Source: Sphyrna mokarran (Eukaryota). From it: 64,000 bases of DNA. The notes beneath the pieces were generated by a model, which did no database searches, was not told the DNA's origin, and worked only from the letters and a program-made list of their open reading frames with translations. Position 1 is the first letter of the stretch. Each line of letters starts with the position of its first letter. The position numbers were made by a program, and so were the translations under genes. The stretch lies in assembly GCA_024679065.1 (NCBI GenBank), contig JAGIQG010000005.1:107136001-107200000 (forward strand), read 5' to 3'. Shown one piece after another: positions 37,155 through 56,594 of the stretch.

Positions 37155-40020
37155 GAACATAGAACATAGAACATAGAACATTACAGCACAGAACAGGCCC
37201 TTCGGCCTTCGATGTTGCACCGACCAATATAAAAAGCAATGCCCCTCCAAACTAAACCATTCCCTTCTCTTCCATATACTTATCAACTAACCTCTTAAAC
37301 GCCACCAAACTTGGCGCATCTACAACTGCTGCAGGCAGGGCATTCCACTCCCGAACCACCCTTTGGGTAAAGAACCTACCTCTGATATCCGTCCTATAAC
37401 TATCACCCCTTAATCTAAAGCTGTGTCCCCNNNNNNNNNNNNNNNNNNNNNNNNNNNNNNNNNNNNNNNNNNNNNNNNNNNNNNNNNNNNNNNNNNNNNN
37501 NNNNNNNNNNNNNNNNNNNNNNNNNNNNNNCGTGCTAGCTTTTTCCATCCTAGGAAAAAGGCTATCACTGTCCACCCTATCTAAACCTCTAATCATCTTA
37601 TATGTTTCGATCAGGTCCCCTCTTAGCCTCCTCCTTTCTAACGAAAACAACCTCAATCCCTCAGCCTCTCCTCATAAGACCTGCCCTTCATACCAGGCAA
37701 CATCCTGGTAAACCTCCTCTGTACCCTCTCCAATGCCTCCACATCTTTCTTATAATGCGGGACCAGAACTGCACACAATACTCCAAGTGCGGCCGCACTA
37801 GAGTTTTGTACAGTTGCAACATGACGTTGCGGCTCCGAAATTCAATCCCCCTACAATAAAAGCTAAGACTCCGTATGCCTTCTTAACAACCTTATCGACT
37901 TGATTGCCTACTTTCAGGGATCTATGCACATATACACCAAGATCCCTCTGTTCATCAACACTATTAAGAGTCCTACCATTAGCCCTATACTCTACACATT
38001 TGTTATTCCTGCCAAAGTGAATTACCTCACACTTTTTCACATTAAACTCCATTTGCCACCTCTCGGCCCAGCTCTGCAACTTGTCCAAGTCACTCTGTAA
38101 ACTAAAACACCCCTCTTCACTATCTACCACACCACCAACTTTAGTATCATCTGCAAATTTACTGATCCATCCCTCAATACCCTCATCCAGATCATTTATA
38201 AAAATTACAAACAGCAGGGGCCCCAAAACAGAACCCTGAGGCACACCACTTGTCACCGAACTCCACGATGAATATCTCCCATCAACCACCACCCTCTGTC
38301 TTCTATCTGCTAGCCAATTCCTAACCCAATTAGCTAATCACCCTCTATCCCATACATCTGCATTTTCTGCAGAAGTCTTCCATGGGCCACCTTATCAAAC
38401 GCCTTACTAAAGTCCATATGTACCACATCAACTGCCTTACCCCCATCCACCTCTTTGGTCACTTTTTCAAAAAACTCAATGAGGTTAGTAAGGCACGACC
38501 TACCTTCACAAAACCATGCTGACTATCCCCAATCAATTCATTTCTCTCTAAATAGCTATAAATCCTATCCCTAATAATTCTCTCCAATACTTTGCCCACA
38601 ACAGAAGTAAGACTCACTGGCCTATAATTCCCTGGAAGGTCTCTCTTCCCCTTCTTGAACAACGGGACCACATTCGCTATCCTCCAGTCCTCCGGAACCA
38701 CACCCGTAACCAATGACGACCTGAAGATCAGAGCCAGAGGCTCTGCAATCTCCTCTCTTGCCTCCCAGAGAATCCTAGGGTAAATCCTGTCCGGCCCAGG
38801 GGACTTATCCAACTTCAAACCCTCGAGAATATCTAGCACATCCTCCCTATCTACTTCGATACTTTCCAGTTTGCCACCCTGTACCTCAGTGTTCTCCATA
38901 ACTACATTTACATCACCCTGCGTGAATACTGAAGAGAAGTATTTATTCAGTGCCTCTCCAATCTCTTCAGGCTCCACGCACAACTTCCCACTGCTGTCTA
39001 TGACTGGCCCTAATCTTGCCCTAACCAATCTTCTATTCTTAACATATCTAAAGAAAGCTTTAGGATTCTCCTTAACCCTATCAGCCAAAGTCTTCTCGTG
39101 TCCCCTCTTAGCTCTCCTCAACTCACTCTTTAGCTCCCTCCTGGCTAATCTATAGCTATCCATTGCACTAACTGAGCCTTCAAGCCTCATCCTGACATAA
39201 GCCTCCTTTTTCCTTTTAACCAGCAAATCAACTTTTTTCGTACACCAAGGTTCTCTTACTCGACCATTTCCTCCTTGCCTGACAGGGACATACTTATCAA
39301 GGAGCAGCAGCTGCTCCTTGAATAAGCTCCACATTCCAGATGTTCCCAGTCCCTGTAGTTTCCTAGTCCAATCTATGCACCCTAATTCTCTCCTGATGGC
39401 CTCATAATTACCCTTCCCCCAGCTATAACTACTGCCCCCAGCTTCATGCCTATCCCTATCCATCACTAAGGTGAATGTAACTGAATTGTGGTCACTATCA
39501 CCAAAATGTTCACTAACTTCCAAGCCTAACACCTGGTCTGGCTCATTGCCCAGCACCAAATCCAATGTAGCCTCACCTCTAGATGGCCTATCTACATACT
39601 GAGTCAAAAAACCTTCCTGCACACTTTGTACGAAAACTGACCCCTCTAACGAGCTAGAGCTATAGCTATTCCAATCAATATTAGTAAAGTTAAAGTCCCC
39701 CATAACAATTACCCTATTACTTTCACTCCTGACCAGAATTGACTTGGCAATCCTTTCCTCAACCTCTCTAGAACTTTTAGGAGGTCTATAAAAGACTCCC
39801 AACAGGGTGACCTCTCCTTTCCTGTTTCTAATCTCAGCCCATACTACCTCAACAGACAAGTCCTCATCAAACTTCTTTTCTGTCACTGTGATACACTCTT
39901 TGACTAATAATGACACTCCTCCCCCCCTTCTACCTCCTTCTCCACTCTGACTAAAGCATTTGAAACCCGGAACCTGCAACATCCATTCTTGTCCTTGCTC
40001 TACCCAAGTCTCTGAAATGG
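37155..40020 (-). mobile_element. Young CR1 LINE, ORF2 (APE endonuclease + RT), 5'-truncated, frameshifted
   Basis: ORF 38459-39982 with GVFYRPP, MGDFN, SDH, KSPGPD, NYRPVSLTS; ORF 37798-38292 with GVPQGSVLGP and FADD; (GAACATA)n tail; truncated at AISETW. Confidence 0.95.
37431..37530. other. Assembly gap (100 N)
   Basis: N run; flanks are contiguous in the sister copy except for one base. Confidence 1.
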
Positions 40021-40353
40021 CCCAGCTAAATTTACCCCAGCTAATCCCGTGACACTGAGGGGCAATTTAGCATGGCCAATTCACCTAATCCACACATCTT
40101 TGGACTGTGGGAGGAAACCAGAACAGCAGTTTTAATTTACTAAGGAGCAAGTTGTTTGAACTTTAGGCAGTGTCTTCCAGTGGTGGAGGCGGCTGACCAT
40201 TGGGCGCCAGCAGAATCTTTCATCTTGCCATTGTCAATGGCATTTGCAAGGCCCATCTTGTCGTTGGGAAAGCAGCCACACAGAAATGCCTTTGGCAGGA
40301 TCGAAAGATCCAGCTGGTGGGAAAACAACTCAAGCAAAATTAAGCTGTGTGTG

Positions 40354-41978
40354 AACATAGAATATAGAACATTACAGCACAGAACAGGCCCTTCGGCTTT
40401 CGATGTTGCGCCGACCAATATAAAAAGCAATGCCCCTCCAAACTAAACCATTCCCTTCTCTTCCATATACTTATCAACTAACCTCTTAAACGCCACCAAA
40501 CTTGGCGCATCTACAACTGCTGCAGGCAGGGCATTCCACTCCCGAACCACCCTTTGGGTAAAGAACCTACCTCTGATATCCGTCCTATAACTATCACCCC
40601 TTAATTTAAAGCTGTGTCCCCTCGTGCTAGCTTTCTCCATCCTAGGAAAAAGGCTATCACTGTCCACCCTATCTAAACCTCTAATCATCTTATATGTTTC
40701 GATAAGGTCTCCTCTTAGCCGCCTCCTTTCTAACGAAAACAACCTCAAATCCCTCAGCCTCTCTTCATAAGACCTGCCTCCATACCAGGCAACATCCTGG
40801 TAAACCTCCTCTGTACCCTCTCCAATGCCTCCACATCTTTCTTATAATGTGGGGACCAGAACTGCACACAATACTCCAAGTGCGGCCGCACTAGAGTTTT
40901 GTACAGTTGCAACATGACGTTGCGGCTCCGAAATTCAATCCCTCTACCAATAAAAGCCAAGACTCCATATGCCTTCCTAACAACCTTCTCGACCTGACTG
41001 CCTACTTTCAGGGATCTATGCACATACACACCAAGATCCTCTGTTCATCTAGACTACTAAGAATCCTACCATTTGCCCTATACTCTACACATTTATTATT
41101 TCTGCCATAGTGCATTACCTCACACTTTTCCACATTAAACTCCATTTGCCACCTCTCGGCCCAGCTCTGCAACTTGTCCAAGTCCCTCTGCAAACTATAA
41201 CACCCCTCTTCACTATCTACCACTCCACCGACTTTAGTGTCATCTGCAAATTTACTAATCCATCCTTCAATACCCTCATCCAGATCATTTATAAAAATTA
41301 CAAACAGCAGGGGCCCCAAAACAGACCCCTGAGGTACACCACTTGTCACCGAACTCCACGATGAATATCTCCCATCAACCACCACCCTCTGTCTTCTATC
41401 TGCTAGCCAATTCCTAACCCAATTAGCTAAATCACCCTCTATCCCATACATCTGCATTTTCTGCAGAAGTCTTCCATGAGCCACCTTATCAAACGCCTTA
41501 CTAAAGTCCATATATACCACATCAACCGCCTTACCCCCATCCACCTCCTTAGTCACTTTTTCAAAAAACTCAATGAGGTTAGTAAGGCACGACCTACCCT
41601 TCACAAAACCATGCTGACTATCTCCAATCAATTCATTACTCTCTAAATAACTATAAATCCTATCCCTAATTATTCTCTCCAATACTTTGCCCACAACAGA
41701 AGTAAGACTCACTGGCCTATAATTCCCTGGAAGGTCTCTCTTCCCCTTCTTGAACAACGGGACCACATTCGCTATCCTCCAGTCCTCCGGAACCACACCC
41801 GTAACCAACGACGACCTGAAGATCAGAGCCAGAGGCTCTGCAATCTCCTCTCTTGCCTCCCAGAGAATCCTAGGGTAAATCCCGTCCGGCCCAGGGGACT
41901 TATCCAACTTCAAACCCTCGAGAATATCTAGCACATCCTCCCTATCTACTTCGATACCTTCCAGTTTGCTACCCTGTG
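40354..41978 (-). mobile_element. Second young CR1 copy (RT and 3' end), ends in gap
   Basis: ORF 41008-41934 is a full RT core (QHGF, DFSKAFD, VPQGSVLGP, FADD); highly similar but not identical to the 37155 copy. Confidence 0.95.
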
Positions 41979-42078
41979 NNNNNNNNNNNNNNNNNNNNNN
42001 NNNNNNNNNNNNNNNNNNNNNNNNNNNNNNNNNNNNNNNNNNNNNNNNNNNNNNNNNNNNNNNNNNNNNNNNNNNNNN
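41979..42078. other. Assembly gap (100 N)
   Basis: N run. Confidence 1.
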
Positions 42079-43329
42079 GTGGGGGAACTCAAACTGCCAG
42101 GGTTTCTGACACTATGTCTGCCCACAACCTCAGCTGTCAGGATCAGAGTTAAAGGGCAGAATTCTCTCATTTTCAGGCTAAGTGCCCACAACAGTGGGAA
42201 AACGAGTGTTTCCCACTGGTACTCACAGTGTCTGAAATATGCTAATGAGCTCATCTCGGGGAACTTGCTGGTCAGCCCACTTTTCAGAGATTTCTAAAGG
42301 GTGCCCCAATCTCTGTGTTCAGAGATGGGCTCCAATGAATTGGTGACCCCACCCCACCCCACTCTACCCGCCCATCCACCCTATCTACTGACCATGGGAG
42401 TACTACCTAACCCTTCACCAAAGAGGGGGATCCTGCACCCCTACTCCCCACACAATACCATACTGGTAACCTGGTCTCTCCCCCTCAGGCCTCCCACTCG
42501 GGTTCCTCCCCTATTTCCTTCAGACCTCCAGTCAGACCCATTTCCCCTCAGAGATTCTACCCAAATACCTTTCCCCATCAGACCCTCCCCACTCAGGCCC
42601 CCTTCAGGCCATACACTGGTATCCTCTGGTATCCTGGCACTGACATGCTGGCCTGGTGCCTTGGATCCCAAGAGAGGGCAGGGAGGTAAGGCCCTGGTCA
42701 TTTGCTGTTCGCTGCTGCAAAAGAGGAAGTGATTTGCAAGGAAAGGAAGTGAAACCACTTATTTCTTTTGAAAAATCCACAGTTGTCAATTAAGCTTAGA
42801 ATCTTTGTAAAGATTGCACTGGGATCAATGGAACTATTTGAGATCCATTCAAGCGTGAAGGGAAATGAAACTAAACACAGCTGACTGGAGCATGAGTAGA
42901 AATTTATTAATGGAGGCCTATTTCAAAGCAATGCATGTTGAATTTGACAGATCAAAGGGTTCCAATGAACTTGAGAATGTTTCAAAGATTTCAGATTTCT
43001 AGGATGCCTCAGACACTTCAAAGCTAAGCTGTGTGAATACACTGGGACTGTTGACACAGCTATGCAGATTGGAACCTCTTCCCTCTCCCTCCCTCAGATA
43101 AAACTCATATCTCCTCTTTGTCAGAGGATTTCAAAAGATTCTGCACATTTGGTCCAATTGCTATAGTGAATTTATAGTAAATCTATGTTCTATGTTCTAT
43201 GAATTGTGCTGCAGTCTGAACAGGTAAAATGAACAATCAGAAATTTGTATATACTGCTCAAGTACTCGTGTCAGGACTTCCAGGGATCCCAAGGCATTCC
43301 AGAAACTTAAATTGAGTAATTTAACAGTT

Positions 43330-49129: not shown

Positions 49130-50252
49130 GAGAAGGTGAGGGGGCATGGGATCCAAGGGACTTTGGCCTCGTGGATCCAAAACTAGCTTGCCGGCAGAAG
49201 GCAGAGAGTGGTTGTGGATGGGTCTTTTTCTGCATGGAGGTCGGTCACCAGTGAAGTGCCCCAGGGATCTGTTCTGGGACCCCTGCTGTTTATCATTTTC
49301 ATAAATGACCTGGATGAGGAAGTGGAGGGATGGGTTAGTAAGTTCGCCGACGATACAAAGGTCGGTGGTGTTGTGGATGGTCTGGAGGGATGTCAAAAGT
49401 TGCAGCGGGACATAGACAGGATGCAAGACTGGGCGGAGAAGTGGCAGATGGACTTCAACGCGGATAAATGTGTAGTGGTCCATTTTGGCAGAAATAATGG
49501 GATGAAGGAGTACAATATAAGGGGTAGGAGTCTTAGCTGTGTTGAAGAGCAGAAGGATCTTGGGGTCCGGGTCCATAGGACTCTTAAATCGGCCTCGCAG
49601 GTGGAGGATGTGGTCAAGAAGGCGTATGGTGTACTGACCTTCATTAATCGAGGGATTGAGTTTAGGAGTCGGGAGGTAATGATGCAGCTTTATAAGACCC
49701 TTGTCAGACCCCACTTGGAGTACTGTGCACAGTTCTGGTCACCTCACTATAGGAAGGATGTGGAAGCTATTGAAAGAGTGCAGAGGAGATTTACAAGGAT
49801 GTTGCCTGGATTGGGAGGCAGGCCTTATGAAGATAGGTTGAGGGAACTAGGTCTCTTCTTCCTGGAGAGACGAAGGTTGAGAGGCAATCTGATAGAGGTT
49901 TATAAAATGTTGAGAGGAATAGATAGGGTGGATTCTCAGAGGCTATTTCCCCGAGCTGAAATGGTTGCTATGAGAGGACACAGATTTAAGGTGCAGGGAA
50001 GCAAATACAGAGGGGATGTTAGGGGTAAGTTTTTCACTCAGAAGGTGGTGAGTGAATGGAATTGGCTGACATCGAAGGTGGTAGAGGCGAACTCGCTGGG
50101 GTCTTTTAAAAGATTTTTGGATGAGTATATGGGAACTAATGGGATGGGGAGTTACAGATAGGTCTGTGGCTTGGTAGGGATAGACGTGATCGGCGCAACT
50201 CATGGGCCAAAGGGCCTGTTTGTGCTGTAGTGTTCTATGTTCTATGTTCTAT
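49130..50252 (+). mobile_element. CR1 LINE, 5'-truncated, open RT C-terminal half
   Basis: ORF 49208-50161 (317 aa): VPQGSVLGP, FADD, LEYCAQFWSP; (TTCTATG)3 tail. Confidence 0.95.
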
Positions 50253-50734
50253 GAAATCCAACCAAAAGGTGACAAATGAAATTTCAACAGCAAGGGGATT
50301 GAAGATGAGAACATCACAGAGAAAGGGTGATGGTAATGTTTGAAGCTCAGCCCAAGGTTTTGCCAGCTTGGCTCTGCCTAACTGAAGCACCTGGGAAATG
50401 GTGGTTTTCTAAAGAATAGAGGGGAAGCTTGTGGCTGTTAGCAAACATGATAGCTTCAGTATTTCTGGGTGATGTTGAGAAAAGCAGCATGTAGCTGAGG
50501 GGGTGGGGTGAGCCATGACCAAAGGCTTGGTAGCTAAAGGTCCATGGGTGAGAAGAGATGCCATCTGAAGATCCCTTGACACTGTTTGGAGAAGCAGAAG
50601 TAGAACTGAGAAGACACCATATTTATAATGAAGGCTGTAAAGATTTTCGTGAAGTATAAGGAATTATGATCACAGTCACAAAAGATGTTGTTCATGAATT
50701 TGCTCAGTGCAGTATTAAGGTCGAAGTTTTTCAA

Positions 50735-50898
50735 CACTCACATTACACACTGACACACACGCATAGTCACTCTCACACACTCTCACACATTCTCACTCAC
50801 ACATTCATTCTCACTCTCTCTCTCTCGCTCACACACACACACACTCTCACTCTCACACACTCTCATTCGCATACACACTCTTTCTCACACACACACAT

Positions 50899-50934
<36 letters not shown>

Positions 50935-51183
50935 TCTCACTCTCACACACTCTCATTTGCATACACACTCTTTCTCACAACACACACATTCTCACTCTCT
51001 CTCATTCGCTCACACACACACACTCTCCACAACTCTCATTTGCATACACACTCTTCTCACACACACACACACACTCTCACTCTCACACACTCTCATTTGC
51101 ATACACACTCTTTCTCAACACACACACACACTCTCACTCTCACACATCTCATTCGCATACACACTCTTCTCACACACCACACA
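50735..51183. repeat. CA/CT compound microsatellite / minisatellite
   Basis: Repeated CACACACTCTCACTCTCACACACTCTCATT(C/T)GCATACACACTC units abutting a gap. Confidence 0.9.
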
Positions 51184-51401
51184 NNNNNNNNNNNNNNNNN
51201 NNNNNNNNNNNNNNNNNNNNNNNNNNNNNNNNNNNNNNNNNNNNNNNNNNNNNNNNNNNNNNNNNNNNNNNNNNNNNNNNNNNNNNNNNNNNNNNNNNNN
51301 NNNNNNNNNNNNNNNNNNNNNNNNNNNNNNNNNNNNNNNNNNNNNNNNNNNNNNNNNNNNNNNNNNNNNNNNNNNNNNNNNNNNNNNNNNNNNNNNNNNN
51401 N
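51184..51401. other. Assembly gap
   Basis: N run. Confidence 1.
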
Positions 51402-51614
51402 AGGCAGCTCTCAGTTGCCTGGTTCAGGTCCTTCCAGTCCGACTCAAGTCTACAGATGTTTACATGGTCCAACTGTTGACTTTGGCAAGACTGGAAGATC
51501 CCTCCAGTGAAAAGGGCTGAAAAATTCTGTCCAAGGACTGCACTTCAGAAATTTGAAGACCAAGGTTCGGAGGAAATGAGAGGGAACTGGACAAGACATT
51601 TAAAAACATTTTCG

Positions 51615-54603: not shown

Positions 54604-55887
54604 GTTGTCATAAGGCTCATAAGGGCAGGAGTAACTATGACTCTCTTATTCTTCGGTGGGTGAATGGGAGAGTCATGGTTACAATAGCTGTGCGAATCTT
54701 GTCGCTTCTGTAGCACAATGAGCTGCGCCTCCTTGACAGTCCCGCCGGGCAACATTGCTGCTACTCCACCGCGGTGATGACTAAAGCAGCTGTCCAAGGA
54801 GCGATGCAGATGTTGTTGTATGTCTGGCTGTCCGCAGTCAGACTGCAATTACAAACAAGTGCTTGGGATTGGCTAGTATCCATTCGTGCATAAAGGCTCG
54901 TTTGTTAGCTGATCCCAGTAACTGTGCGATTCTTCTGGTTTCTAGCACACAGTGAGTCAATCCCTTCCGCGGGAGCCACCTGGTATCGTCTCCGTGGGCA
55001 CAGGAGATGGTATTCCATGACTGACCGAGAAGCTAATAGCAGGGGCGACTCATGCTAAGACCACGACCACTACCACCAGACTGCCAGCCAGGAGTGGTAT
55101 CATTGGAATGGTCTCTGGTATGTTTCGCATAGCTGTGGTATTCTTGGCGTTCTAGACCACGGTGAGTCAATCCTGACAGAGGTCCCGCAGGGTATTCAGG
55201 CCTTCAAGCTGGCAGGTGAATGGTCCTGAAGGGAATTTGACTGGCCGAGAACAGCCAGCATGCTTCTATACCTATAAACCCGGTTAATTGTGAAAGAAAA
55301 AAATTTTTGTCTTGACAGGTTTCGGCTTGACCCGGGGATAGTTGGTGATTTGCTGACGGATGCGGTCACGCCTATCTAGGGAGTAGAAAGCACCTCTGCG
55401 ACCTCCTGCCCACACGATCGGCACAGAGGAAAAGACACATAGATCTGAACTTGGTGTGACGCAGAGAAGGGATGCCCAGGGGCTGGGCGTGGTTGACAGC
55501 GATGGGCGCAGCTCCCGGCGTTGTGCGAGCGATTCTCATGCCACGGTCGCGTTTTCAGCAATGTAGTTTGTTCATTGCGCGGGCGTGTCTCCTAATAAAT
55601 AAAGGCTCATTTTTGCCTCAAATGATGATTTATGGGTAAACGGCTCGAGGCTGACGAGCAAAAACTAACCTGCACGTCAGGTGCTCCCAAAGGTGTGATT
55701 CAATCTGCTTGTCTGCAATTATGGTAGTTGTTGCCGCATCTTTCTGATCATTTCCCCGTTTCCACCTATGCCCTACGGCTGTGTAACATCAGGTGGATGT
55801 CACTCTGATTCCATTCAGAAGTGCACAATGCACGTCAACGAGCGACAATAAAAGTCAGATAAGACACCCTCACGAGTGTCTCTTAAA
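54604..55887 (+). ncRNA. Putative array of structured ncRNA units (~210-235 nt period), foreign composition
   Basis: Three clear repeats at 54685, 54919 and 55130 plus degenerate ones at ~55339 and ~55564; conserved predicted fold with compensatory changes; stem mismatches largely G-U on + strand; CpG-rich; no credible ORF. Confidence 0.6.
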
Positions 55888-56165
55888 ATAGCAAGGTTGG
55901 CTGAGAGATGCACATTGGCCAGATTACTGGGGACAACTACTGTCTGCTTCTTCAAATCGTGAGAAGAAAATTTGTCTACACACTTGAGAGGCTAGGCCGG
56001 GGTTTGGATGGAATCCTCATTTTCATGTCTCTTTAACTTCATTGGTGTCATGGCCCAATTGCATTCAGCCATAATTGGTTGCAAATCAGTAGAATGCTGC
56101 AAAGATGGCAGAAATGTTGGCATCAGGAGCCAAATGACTGCTCAATGTGAGCATGGACTCATCTG

Positions 56166-56594
56166 GAGGGGCATACACGTGATGGGTCGTGAGAGGACTG
56201 CTCTTGGACCTTTTTCGAGAGTATTCTACTGCTTCACATCGTTAGTGTATGCTTGACCTGGACCATCTGATGGGCAACACGACAGCGCAGTGACTACAGC
56301 TGTGCTGTGCAGATACATGGATTTGGGCCTGTGTCTGTGGGAGTTTGCGCATTCTCCCCGTGCTTGCGTGGGTTTTCTCCAGGAGCTCTGGTTTCCTCTC
56401 ACATCCCAAAGATGCGCTCTTAGGCTAATTGGCAAAACAAATTCTCACTAAATTGTCTCAAATTTGGTTTTTAATACATAGATCTATAAACATGGACAGG
56501 GATCGCGTGTAGAAGTGGGAACATCGAGGTGGCGGTGCAGGCTCATTGGGCCGAAGGGCCTGTTTCCCGTGCTGTTTTGTTCTTTGTTCTTTGT
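56166..56594 (+). mobile_element. 3' UTR-only copy of the CR1 subfamily with V-SINE core
   Basis: Closely similar to 61100-61525 and 32325-32712; TTCTTTG tail. Confidence 0.8.

Follow-up and report, generated by a model that had tools for sequence, protein, structure and literature searches.

The closest described counterparts of the element reported here are the R2 SIDEs of Drosophila (Eickbush and Eickbush 2012, PMC3414825), which, according to the accessible sections of that paper, are non-autonomous, carry an R2 ribozyme at the 5′-end and the R2 3′-end, and have no ORF; template jumping by R2 is documented in the same sections. R2 ribozymes are HDV-like and, in the available excerpts of PMC3774820 and PMC11331408, are described with a P1 formed from 28S sequence, an HDV-type L3, P1.1, J4/2, and a long J1/2. 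Many of them cut at the G at position −28, and cleavage of the silkmoth ribozyme is helped by a 35-nt J1/2 region and by downstream sequence (excerpted text of PMC3774820). HDV folds have been argued to protect uncapped R2 templates, and RNA-only gene insertion, for which template stability is limiting, builds on R2 proteins together with their 5′ ribozymes (available parts of PMC11331408 and PMC12222951).

Here, we analysed a window of 64,000 nt from the genome of Sphyrna mokarran, in which a first-pass annotation had pointed out a repeat motif with a constant hairpin scaffold and short variable slots. We consider it probable that the motif is the J1/2 hairpin of an R2-type HDV-like fold, of which a dispersed non-autonomous R2 derivative carries three, and that its loop, which is predicted to pair with the tail of its own module, likely serves as a clamp.

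Results

Occurrence of the motif

The three motif copies were all located on the + strand, at positions 54685-54722 (A), 54919-54956 (B), and 55130-55166 (C), and their alignment is exactly as annotated. The pattern has three matches in the window and none in each of 100 shuffles, a result that by itself is circular, because the pattern was built from the same three copies. The genome-wide search proposed at the time yielded 293 exact matches in the own genome (2.77 Gb) and none for the reversed control. No matches were found in the prokaryote genomes or in the viral contigs that were searched.

The proposed hairpin stem is real, i.e. 93% (A), 90% (B), and 96% (C) of the stem cells are paired across subfamilies. 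The compensatory swap that had been noted between the copies was likewise confirmed, and a wider range of swaps was found across the subfamilies. When folded in isolation, none of the window hairpins shows unusual stability (z = 0.57, −0.07, and −1.06 for A, B, and C, respectively).

The slot does differ between the modules, as had been described, but it is not free to vary. Among the 100 genome matches listed, it falls into three classes, one per module, and the point variants within the classes resemble decay. A guide RNA or a spacer array would have a slot varying between copies and targets in trans. Instead, the slot is constant for each module, and the sequence complementary to it is found in cis, about 85–95 nt downstream in the same module. 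Because the slot is fixed per module and the loop is complementary to the tail in cis, we regard it as a cis-pairing strand and have given up the comparison with the programmable slot of guide RNAs. The alternative proposal of a processing site was right in spirit, because the hairpin forms part of a self-cleaving-ribozyme fold, although the hairpin itself is not the cut site.

Extent and copies of the element

The motif copies lie within an interspersed repeat, of which all 40 scored candidates (of 537 candidates) matched, 39 of them besides the window copy, at 87–91%. The whole non-autonomous, R2-derived (SIDE-like) element was delimited by the alignment of copies and spans 54624..55891 on the + strand; its boundaries and its dispersal are direct observations. 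In the 26 aligned copies the ends are sharp, the element length is ~1340 nt, and target-site duplications are absent. Copies of the family differ on average by 6% from their majority sequence. An earlier guess of a target duplication near 55602 was discarded, since the element ends at 55891 and the duplication is absent. The window copy differs by 5.7% from the family majority sequence, and ~77 nt are missing at 55475. A six-frame reading of the family majority sequence revealed no long ORF. Several sister subfamilies of 1.47–1.64 kb have an identical 5′ architecture. The R2-derivative reading would explain this repeat family of hundreds of copies, and the window copy is a decayed passenger. 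Apparent second elements at five loci (L009, L020, L029, L040, and L112) turned out to be pattern matches that were anchored wrongly. Contigs from four sequencing runs (three organisms) cover the element, which is not informative on its expression.

Two other classifications were considered. A SINE with a tRNA, 5S, or 7SL head and an internal promoter was rejected, because no Rfam family reaches the gathering score in the window and the head consists of 28S sequence and a ribozyme. The second is that the motifs are host gene features, i.e. 6-nt microexons or antigen-receptor D segments between recombination heptamers. Motifs B and C do read AG-6 nt-GTGAGT (pattern at 54946 and 55156), and heptamer-like words flank each core. 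However, motif A has no donor site, and the locus has no heptamer-nonamer signal, since the nonamers of a V(D)J D segment (heptamer, 12/23 spacer, nonamer) are absent. Moreover, hundreds of scattered repeat copies contain these letters as well, and the microexon pattern is accounted for by the repeat, so that we regard this reading as hardly credible.

Other repeats were observed in the window. Positions 37252-42111 and 49187-50161 contain CR1-type LINE fragments with long RT frames, and a simple repeat is found at ~50660-51520. A piece of the SINE at ~56170-56590, which we take to be family HE1, is also present in the R2 3′ UTR (L054, 8700-9560) and in the 3′ halves of L092 and L093.

Ends of the element, the autonomous R2, and insertion sites

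The element starts with a head of 25 nt (54624..54648, + strand), which is derived from the 28S rRNA sequence upstream of the R2 site and matches a 28S fragment of the own genome (L041). Self-cleavage is predicted at the first G of the head (54624; position −28), where the P1 5′ strand of module A also lies. For 22 of 30 copies sampled via the 3′-end, the 5′ start is located at most 10 nt from the −28 G. A short stretch inside the element (55637-55649) resembles the 28S sequence just upstream of the head.

A 3′ terminal motif with a hairpin (55834..55891, + strand) is common to the 3′-ends of the autonomous R2 and of the sister families, and sequence comparison predicts that it is the binding and priming end for the R2 protein. 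Like the 28S head, this R2-like 3′-end is directly observed. The window family has the last ~55 nt in common with the autonomous R2 (L054); beyond these terminal nucleotides, its 3′ half has no alignment with the R2 3′ UTR. For comparison, the 3′ half of the sister family L091 aligns with the 3′ UTR of the autonomous R2 with 77% over 648 nt.

The autonomous R2 (L054) contains zinc fingers, a Myb-like stretch (by eye), an RT, and a C-terminal nuclease region, and its best PDB matches are three chains named R2 (E ~1e-160). It is dispersed genome-wide, with at least 151 matches (150 scored of 347 candidates plus 150 of 613; L054, L121-L160), and several copies have intact frames of 1345–1358 aa, among them the 1355-aa frames of L126, L128, and L129. 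At the 3′ junctions of R2, 12 of 20 sequences begin with TAGC, and only one continues into 28S, namely the copy that was picked through its 28S flank. As in the derivative, target duplications are absent from R2. The 3′ junctions of the window family have T, A, and G in 38, 34, and 30 of 41 copies, respectively, and none of the 41 runs into 28S; insertion at the 28S R2 site, typical of R2 SIDEs, is thus not a feature of this family. Because of the shared ends, the TAG(C) junctions, and the lack of target duplications, we infer from the sequences that the R2 protein may mobilise the family in trans.

Fifteen of the 41 window-family copies (including L013, L014, L017, L019, L028, L029, L030, and L032) are inserted in sense orientation at one site in a CR1 LINE ORF with a sequence similar to the 28S target. 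Of 62 non-autonomous copies, 3 are located at a second CR1 site. Four sister copies that were picked by a 28S pattern carry just 38–357 nt of 28S. The dispersed elements L042-L044, L046, L048, L051, and L053 carry 38–357 nt of downstream 28S, and two carry 60–114 nt of upstream 28S, suggesting that these elements are copies from rDNA co-transcripts. Two small 28S contigs, L041 (C1259) and L049 (C1614), end right at the R2 site. One of them includes 15 nt from a 3′-end of R2 type, a hint of rDNA insertions that are missing from the assembly.

Three homologous modules, one with a catalytic signature

The 5′ part of the element contains three homologous modules, which are directly apparent from the alignment. 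In module A, the predicted fold has two J1/2 hairpins: hairpin 1 (54631..54682, + strand), which sequesters the 28S-derived stretch, and motif A as hairpin 2, with the loop strand at 54701-54709. The HDV-like core (54721..54791, + strand) was assigned by alignment and by weak matches to Rfam RF00094 on sister copies, i.e. 30.8 and 27.9 bits at two of six loci, which is under the gathering score of 50. It is composed of the P2 5′ strand (54721-26), P3/L3 (54727-40), the P1 3′ strand (54741-46), P4 (54753-79), J4/2 with the predicted catalytic C at 54781, and the P2 3′ strand (54786-91). Tail A, which is complementary to the loop of motif A, follows at 54797..54805. The nested double pseudoknot (P1, P1.1, P2, P3, P4) was recovered, with 95% (P2), 96% (P3), 94% (P1.1), and 94% (P4) paired, and the catalytic C in J4/2 is invariant in all 17 module-A rows. 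The fold predicts that module A, alone among the three modules, cuts itself. One of the P3 pairs of module A is disrupted in the window copy, and this copy is therefore probably impaired.

Module B (54857..55033, + strand) was assigned by alignment and structure. Its P1 5′ strand (~54857) is decayed in the window copy, and it further contains a hairpin (54865-916), motif B, the P2/P3/P1 3′ strands (54955-80), P4 (54984-55012), a non-canonical J4/2 (55013-17), the P2 3′ strand (55018-22), and the tail (55028-33). Module C (55039..55258, + strand) consists of the P1 5′ strand (55039-44), motif C, the core (55165-88), P4 (55195-230), a J4/2 without any C (55231-36), the P2 3′ strand (55237-42), and the tail (55248-58). 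The P1, P2, P3, P4 scaffold is present in both modules (for C, two P4 pairs are countable on the alignment), and the catalytic J4/2 and L3/P1.1 signature, which is observed directly in A only, is absent from both.

Among 12 subfamily representatives, the identity of hairpins, cores, and tails is 0.85–0.96, compared with 0.34–0.79 for the linkers; the values are 0.94 for the core of B and 0.96 for the hairpin of C, and the cores of B and C are conserved to the same degree as that of A. The J4/2 stretches of B and C are themselves conserved (0.87 and 0.95), which is compatible with ribozyme activity of B and C through a non-canonical active site, leading to the release of shorter RNAs, especially as silkmoth R2 ribozymes retain little but a C and an A in J4/2 (available text of PMC3774820). 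However, in most rows of module C the stretch from P4 to P2 is free of cytosine, and the L3 of this module has lost the P1.1 pairs. In addition, none of 49 copies starts at P1 of B or C, though just 14 of these copies are truncated. Activity of B and C thus appears improbable to us, and a predicted cleavage by module A alone is preferred. Three truncated copies (L100, L103, and L120) begin 18–30 nt upstream of the P1 of module B, possibly reflecting a stall of the reverse transcriptase just 3′ of module A.

The autonomous R2 contains one ribozyme module with a two-hairpin J1/2 as in the element, and three modules were not found in any of 28 R2 5′ regions. Its post-P2 tail sits just before a candidate start codon. 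In older R2 lineages (L163-L171) an A-rich tail is nearly invariant, and in several of them it is located right before a candidate AUG; the P2 strands of L166 and L168 resemble P2 of modules B and C.

Predicted pairing of the motif loop with the post-P2 tail

Within every module, a tail 5–6 nt past P2 is complementary to the slot together with TTCT. Across the alignment, 91% (A), 90% (B), and 98% (C) of the cells of this loop-tail helix are paired. One pair per module has changed on both sides, with UA found 6 times and CG 5 times in A, UA 20 times and CG once in B, and CG 18 times and UA 3 times in C. This covariation is directly observed, and it comprises few independent events among related sequences. 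In one C subfamily, an insertion in the loop is matched by a bulged base in the tail. The structures of the whole modules are 93–98% paired, compared with 23–59% when they are slid.

The specificity of the pairing was quantified with the mean duplex energies in 16 elements. Loop A has −12.2 with its own tail versus −6.8 and −6.1 with the other tails, and loop C −12.4 versus −7.4 and −9.6; loop B shows no preference for its own tail (−7.3 versus −8.2 and −7.5). The own tail was the best in 31 of 48 loop tests. When the whole element was scanned, the own tail ranked second for A and was not among the top 8 windows in the case of B, C, and R2. For the R2 copies of the own genome, the loop-tail duplex was clearly above shuffled tails in 2 of 10, and no loop was found in one further copy; these tests ran on decayed copies and are mostly uninformative. 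The pairs that changed on both sides are not in clear excess over shuffles (37, 42, and 95 of 500). Taken as sequence evidence, the covariation argues for loop-tail pairing in A and C, and weakly so in B.

The best independent support for the pairing comes from a comparison by eye with published elasmobranch R2 5′-ends, i.e. the first ~400 nt of each of the 13 chondrichthyan rows of Table S2 in the accessible part of PMC13188248. Five of the 13 rows (catshark, zebra shark clade A, two bamboo sharks, and Atlantic stingray) appear to have the hairpin with a loop complementary to the post-P2 tail, and in four rows the complement comprises 9 bp. Between zebra shark and catshark an A-U/G-C swap was noted in the loop-tail helix, and the stingray hairpin has the same flanks as the window motif, with a loop and a tail that are different yet again complementary. 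Of the other eight rows, that of the ghostshark has a ribozyme without the J1/2 motif hairpin, three lack the ribozyme region in the part shown, and in the remaining four, which belong to other lineages, no motif hairpin was seen.

The conservation of the flanks from the element to the stingray R2 (by eye, in the same part of the table) could also mean that the hairpin, with its constant stem and U-rich loop, is mainly a binding site of the R2 protein or of a host protein, that its tripling raises the avidity for the R2 protein, and that the loop-tail pairing is secondary. In accordance with this, copy L117 lacks J1/2 hairpin 1 and has retained the motif hairpin. However, the loop letters change along with the tail instead of staying fixed, and we judge a mere protein-binding site to be quite unlikely.

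Another interpretation accepts the same element and treats B and C as neutral relics of old duplications, so that just module A and its hairpin matter. The lack of the catalytic signature in B and C and the weak specificity of loop B are compatible with it, as is the relatedness of the subfamilies, which may be mosaic. In contrast, the core of B (0.94) directly adjoins a hairpin with an identity of 0.34, P4 and the loop-tail helix vary yet remain paired, and B and C are kept in every position-ordered sampled element that reaches far enough 5′. We therefore regard neutrality as doubtful, albeit deserving serious consideration, and prefer retained folds in all three modules, in which, according to the structural model, the loop-tail pairing likely clamps the fold shut.

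Discussion

The following life cycle of the element is proposed. Module A would cut read-through transcripts at the −28 G, an intact R2 protein of the own genome would bind the 3′ motif in trans, and target-primed reverse transcription would insert the RNA at TAG(C/G)C-like sites. Modules B and C may have arisen through duplication or template jumping. They would have had to lose catalysis, because the element would be trimmed by any inner ribozyme that was active, and they may have been kept as folded, non-cutting stability modules of an uncapped RNA, with the loop-tail clamp stabilising the fold.

A wider scenario is put forward tentatively. The clade-A R2 ribozymes of sharks and rays would carry an extra pseudoknot between the loop of J1/2 and the post-P2 tail, R2 would have escaped from the rDNA in one lineage, and a parasite of it would have stacked three folds, one active and two dead but under selection, which serve as RNA armour or as decoys for the R2 protein. 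If our interpretation of the element holds, the clamp would be a stabilising addition to the HDV fold of natural origin, for which compensatory variants already exist, and ribozyme folds would have been retained after catalysis was lost. The R2 itself would be a vertebrate R2 with intact ORFs and a relaxed target choice, the specificity of which could be compared with that of its rDNA-bound relatives.

In the literature searched, i.e. texts outside subscription journals, neither a loop-tail helix, nor a SIDE with stacked dead ribozymes, nor a vertebrate R2 with a dispersed distribution was found to be reported. Repbase or Dfam may already list the family.

The comparison with known systems can be summarised as follows. 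The own-genome R2 shares its location outside the rDNA with a known invertebrate R2, and differs from it in that it is a vertebrate element, has kept the 28S head, prefers a short TAG(C), and supports non-autonomous families. The clade-A R2 of sharks and rays, as far as the available part of PMC13188248 goes, likewise has a two-hairpin J1/2 and a loop-tail complement in five rows, and its protein N-terminus and RT are similar to those of the own-genome R2 (all by eye). Together with the repeats of the own genome, this likeness points to a cartilaginous fish. The clade-A elements are reported there as 28S-specific and full-length, whereas the own-genome R2 occurs with non-rDNA flanks on dozens of chromosome-scale contigs. 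Module A has the features of the R2 HDV-like ribozymes described in the excerpts of PMC3774820 and PMC11331408, from which it differs by the extra J1/2 hairpin with a loop complementary to the post-P2 tail. By analogy, the element would work like an R2 SIDE save for the insertion into 28S, i.e. it has a 5′ R2-type ribozyme (by sequence and structure), a 3′-end in common with the own-genome R2, and no coding capacity. The Drosophila R2 SIDEs, as characterised in the accessible sections of PMC3414825, reside in the 28S gene and have one ribozyme, while the window family is dispersed in a vertebrate genome in hundreds of copies and carries three folds.
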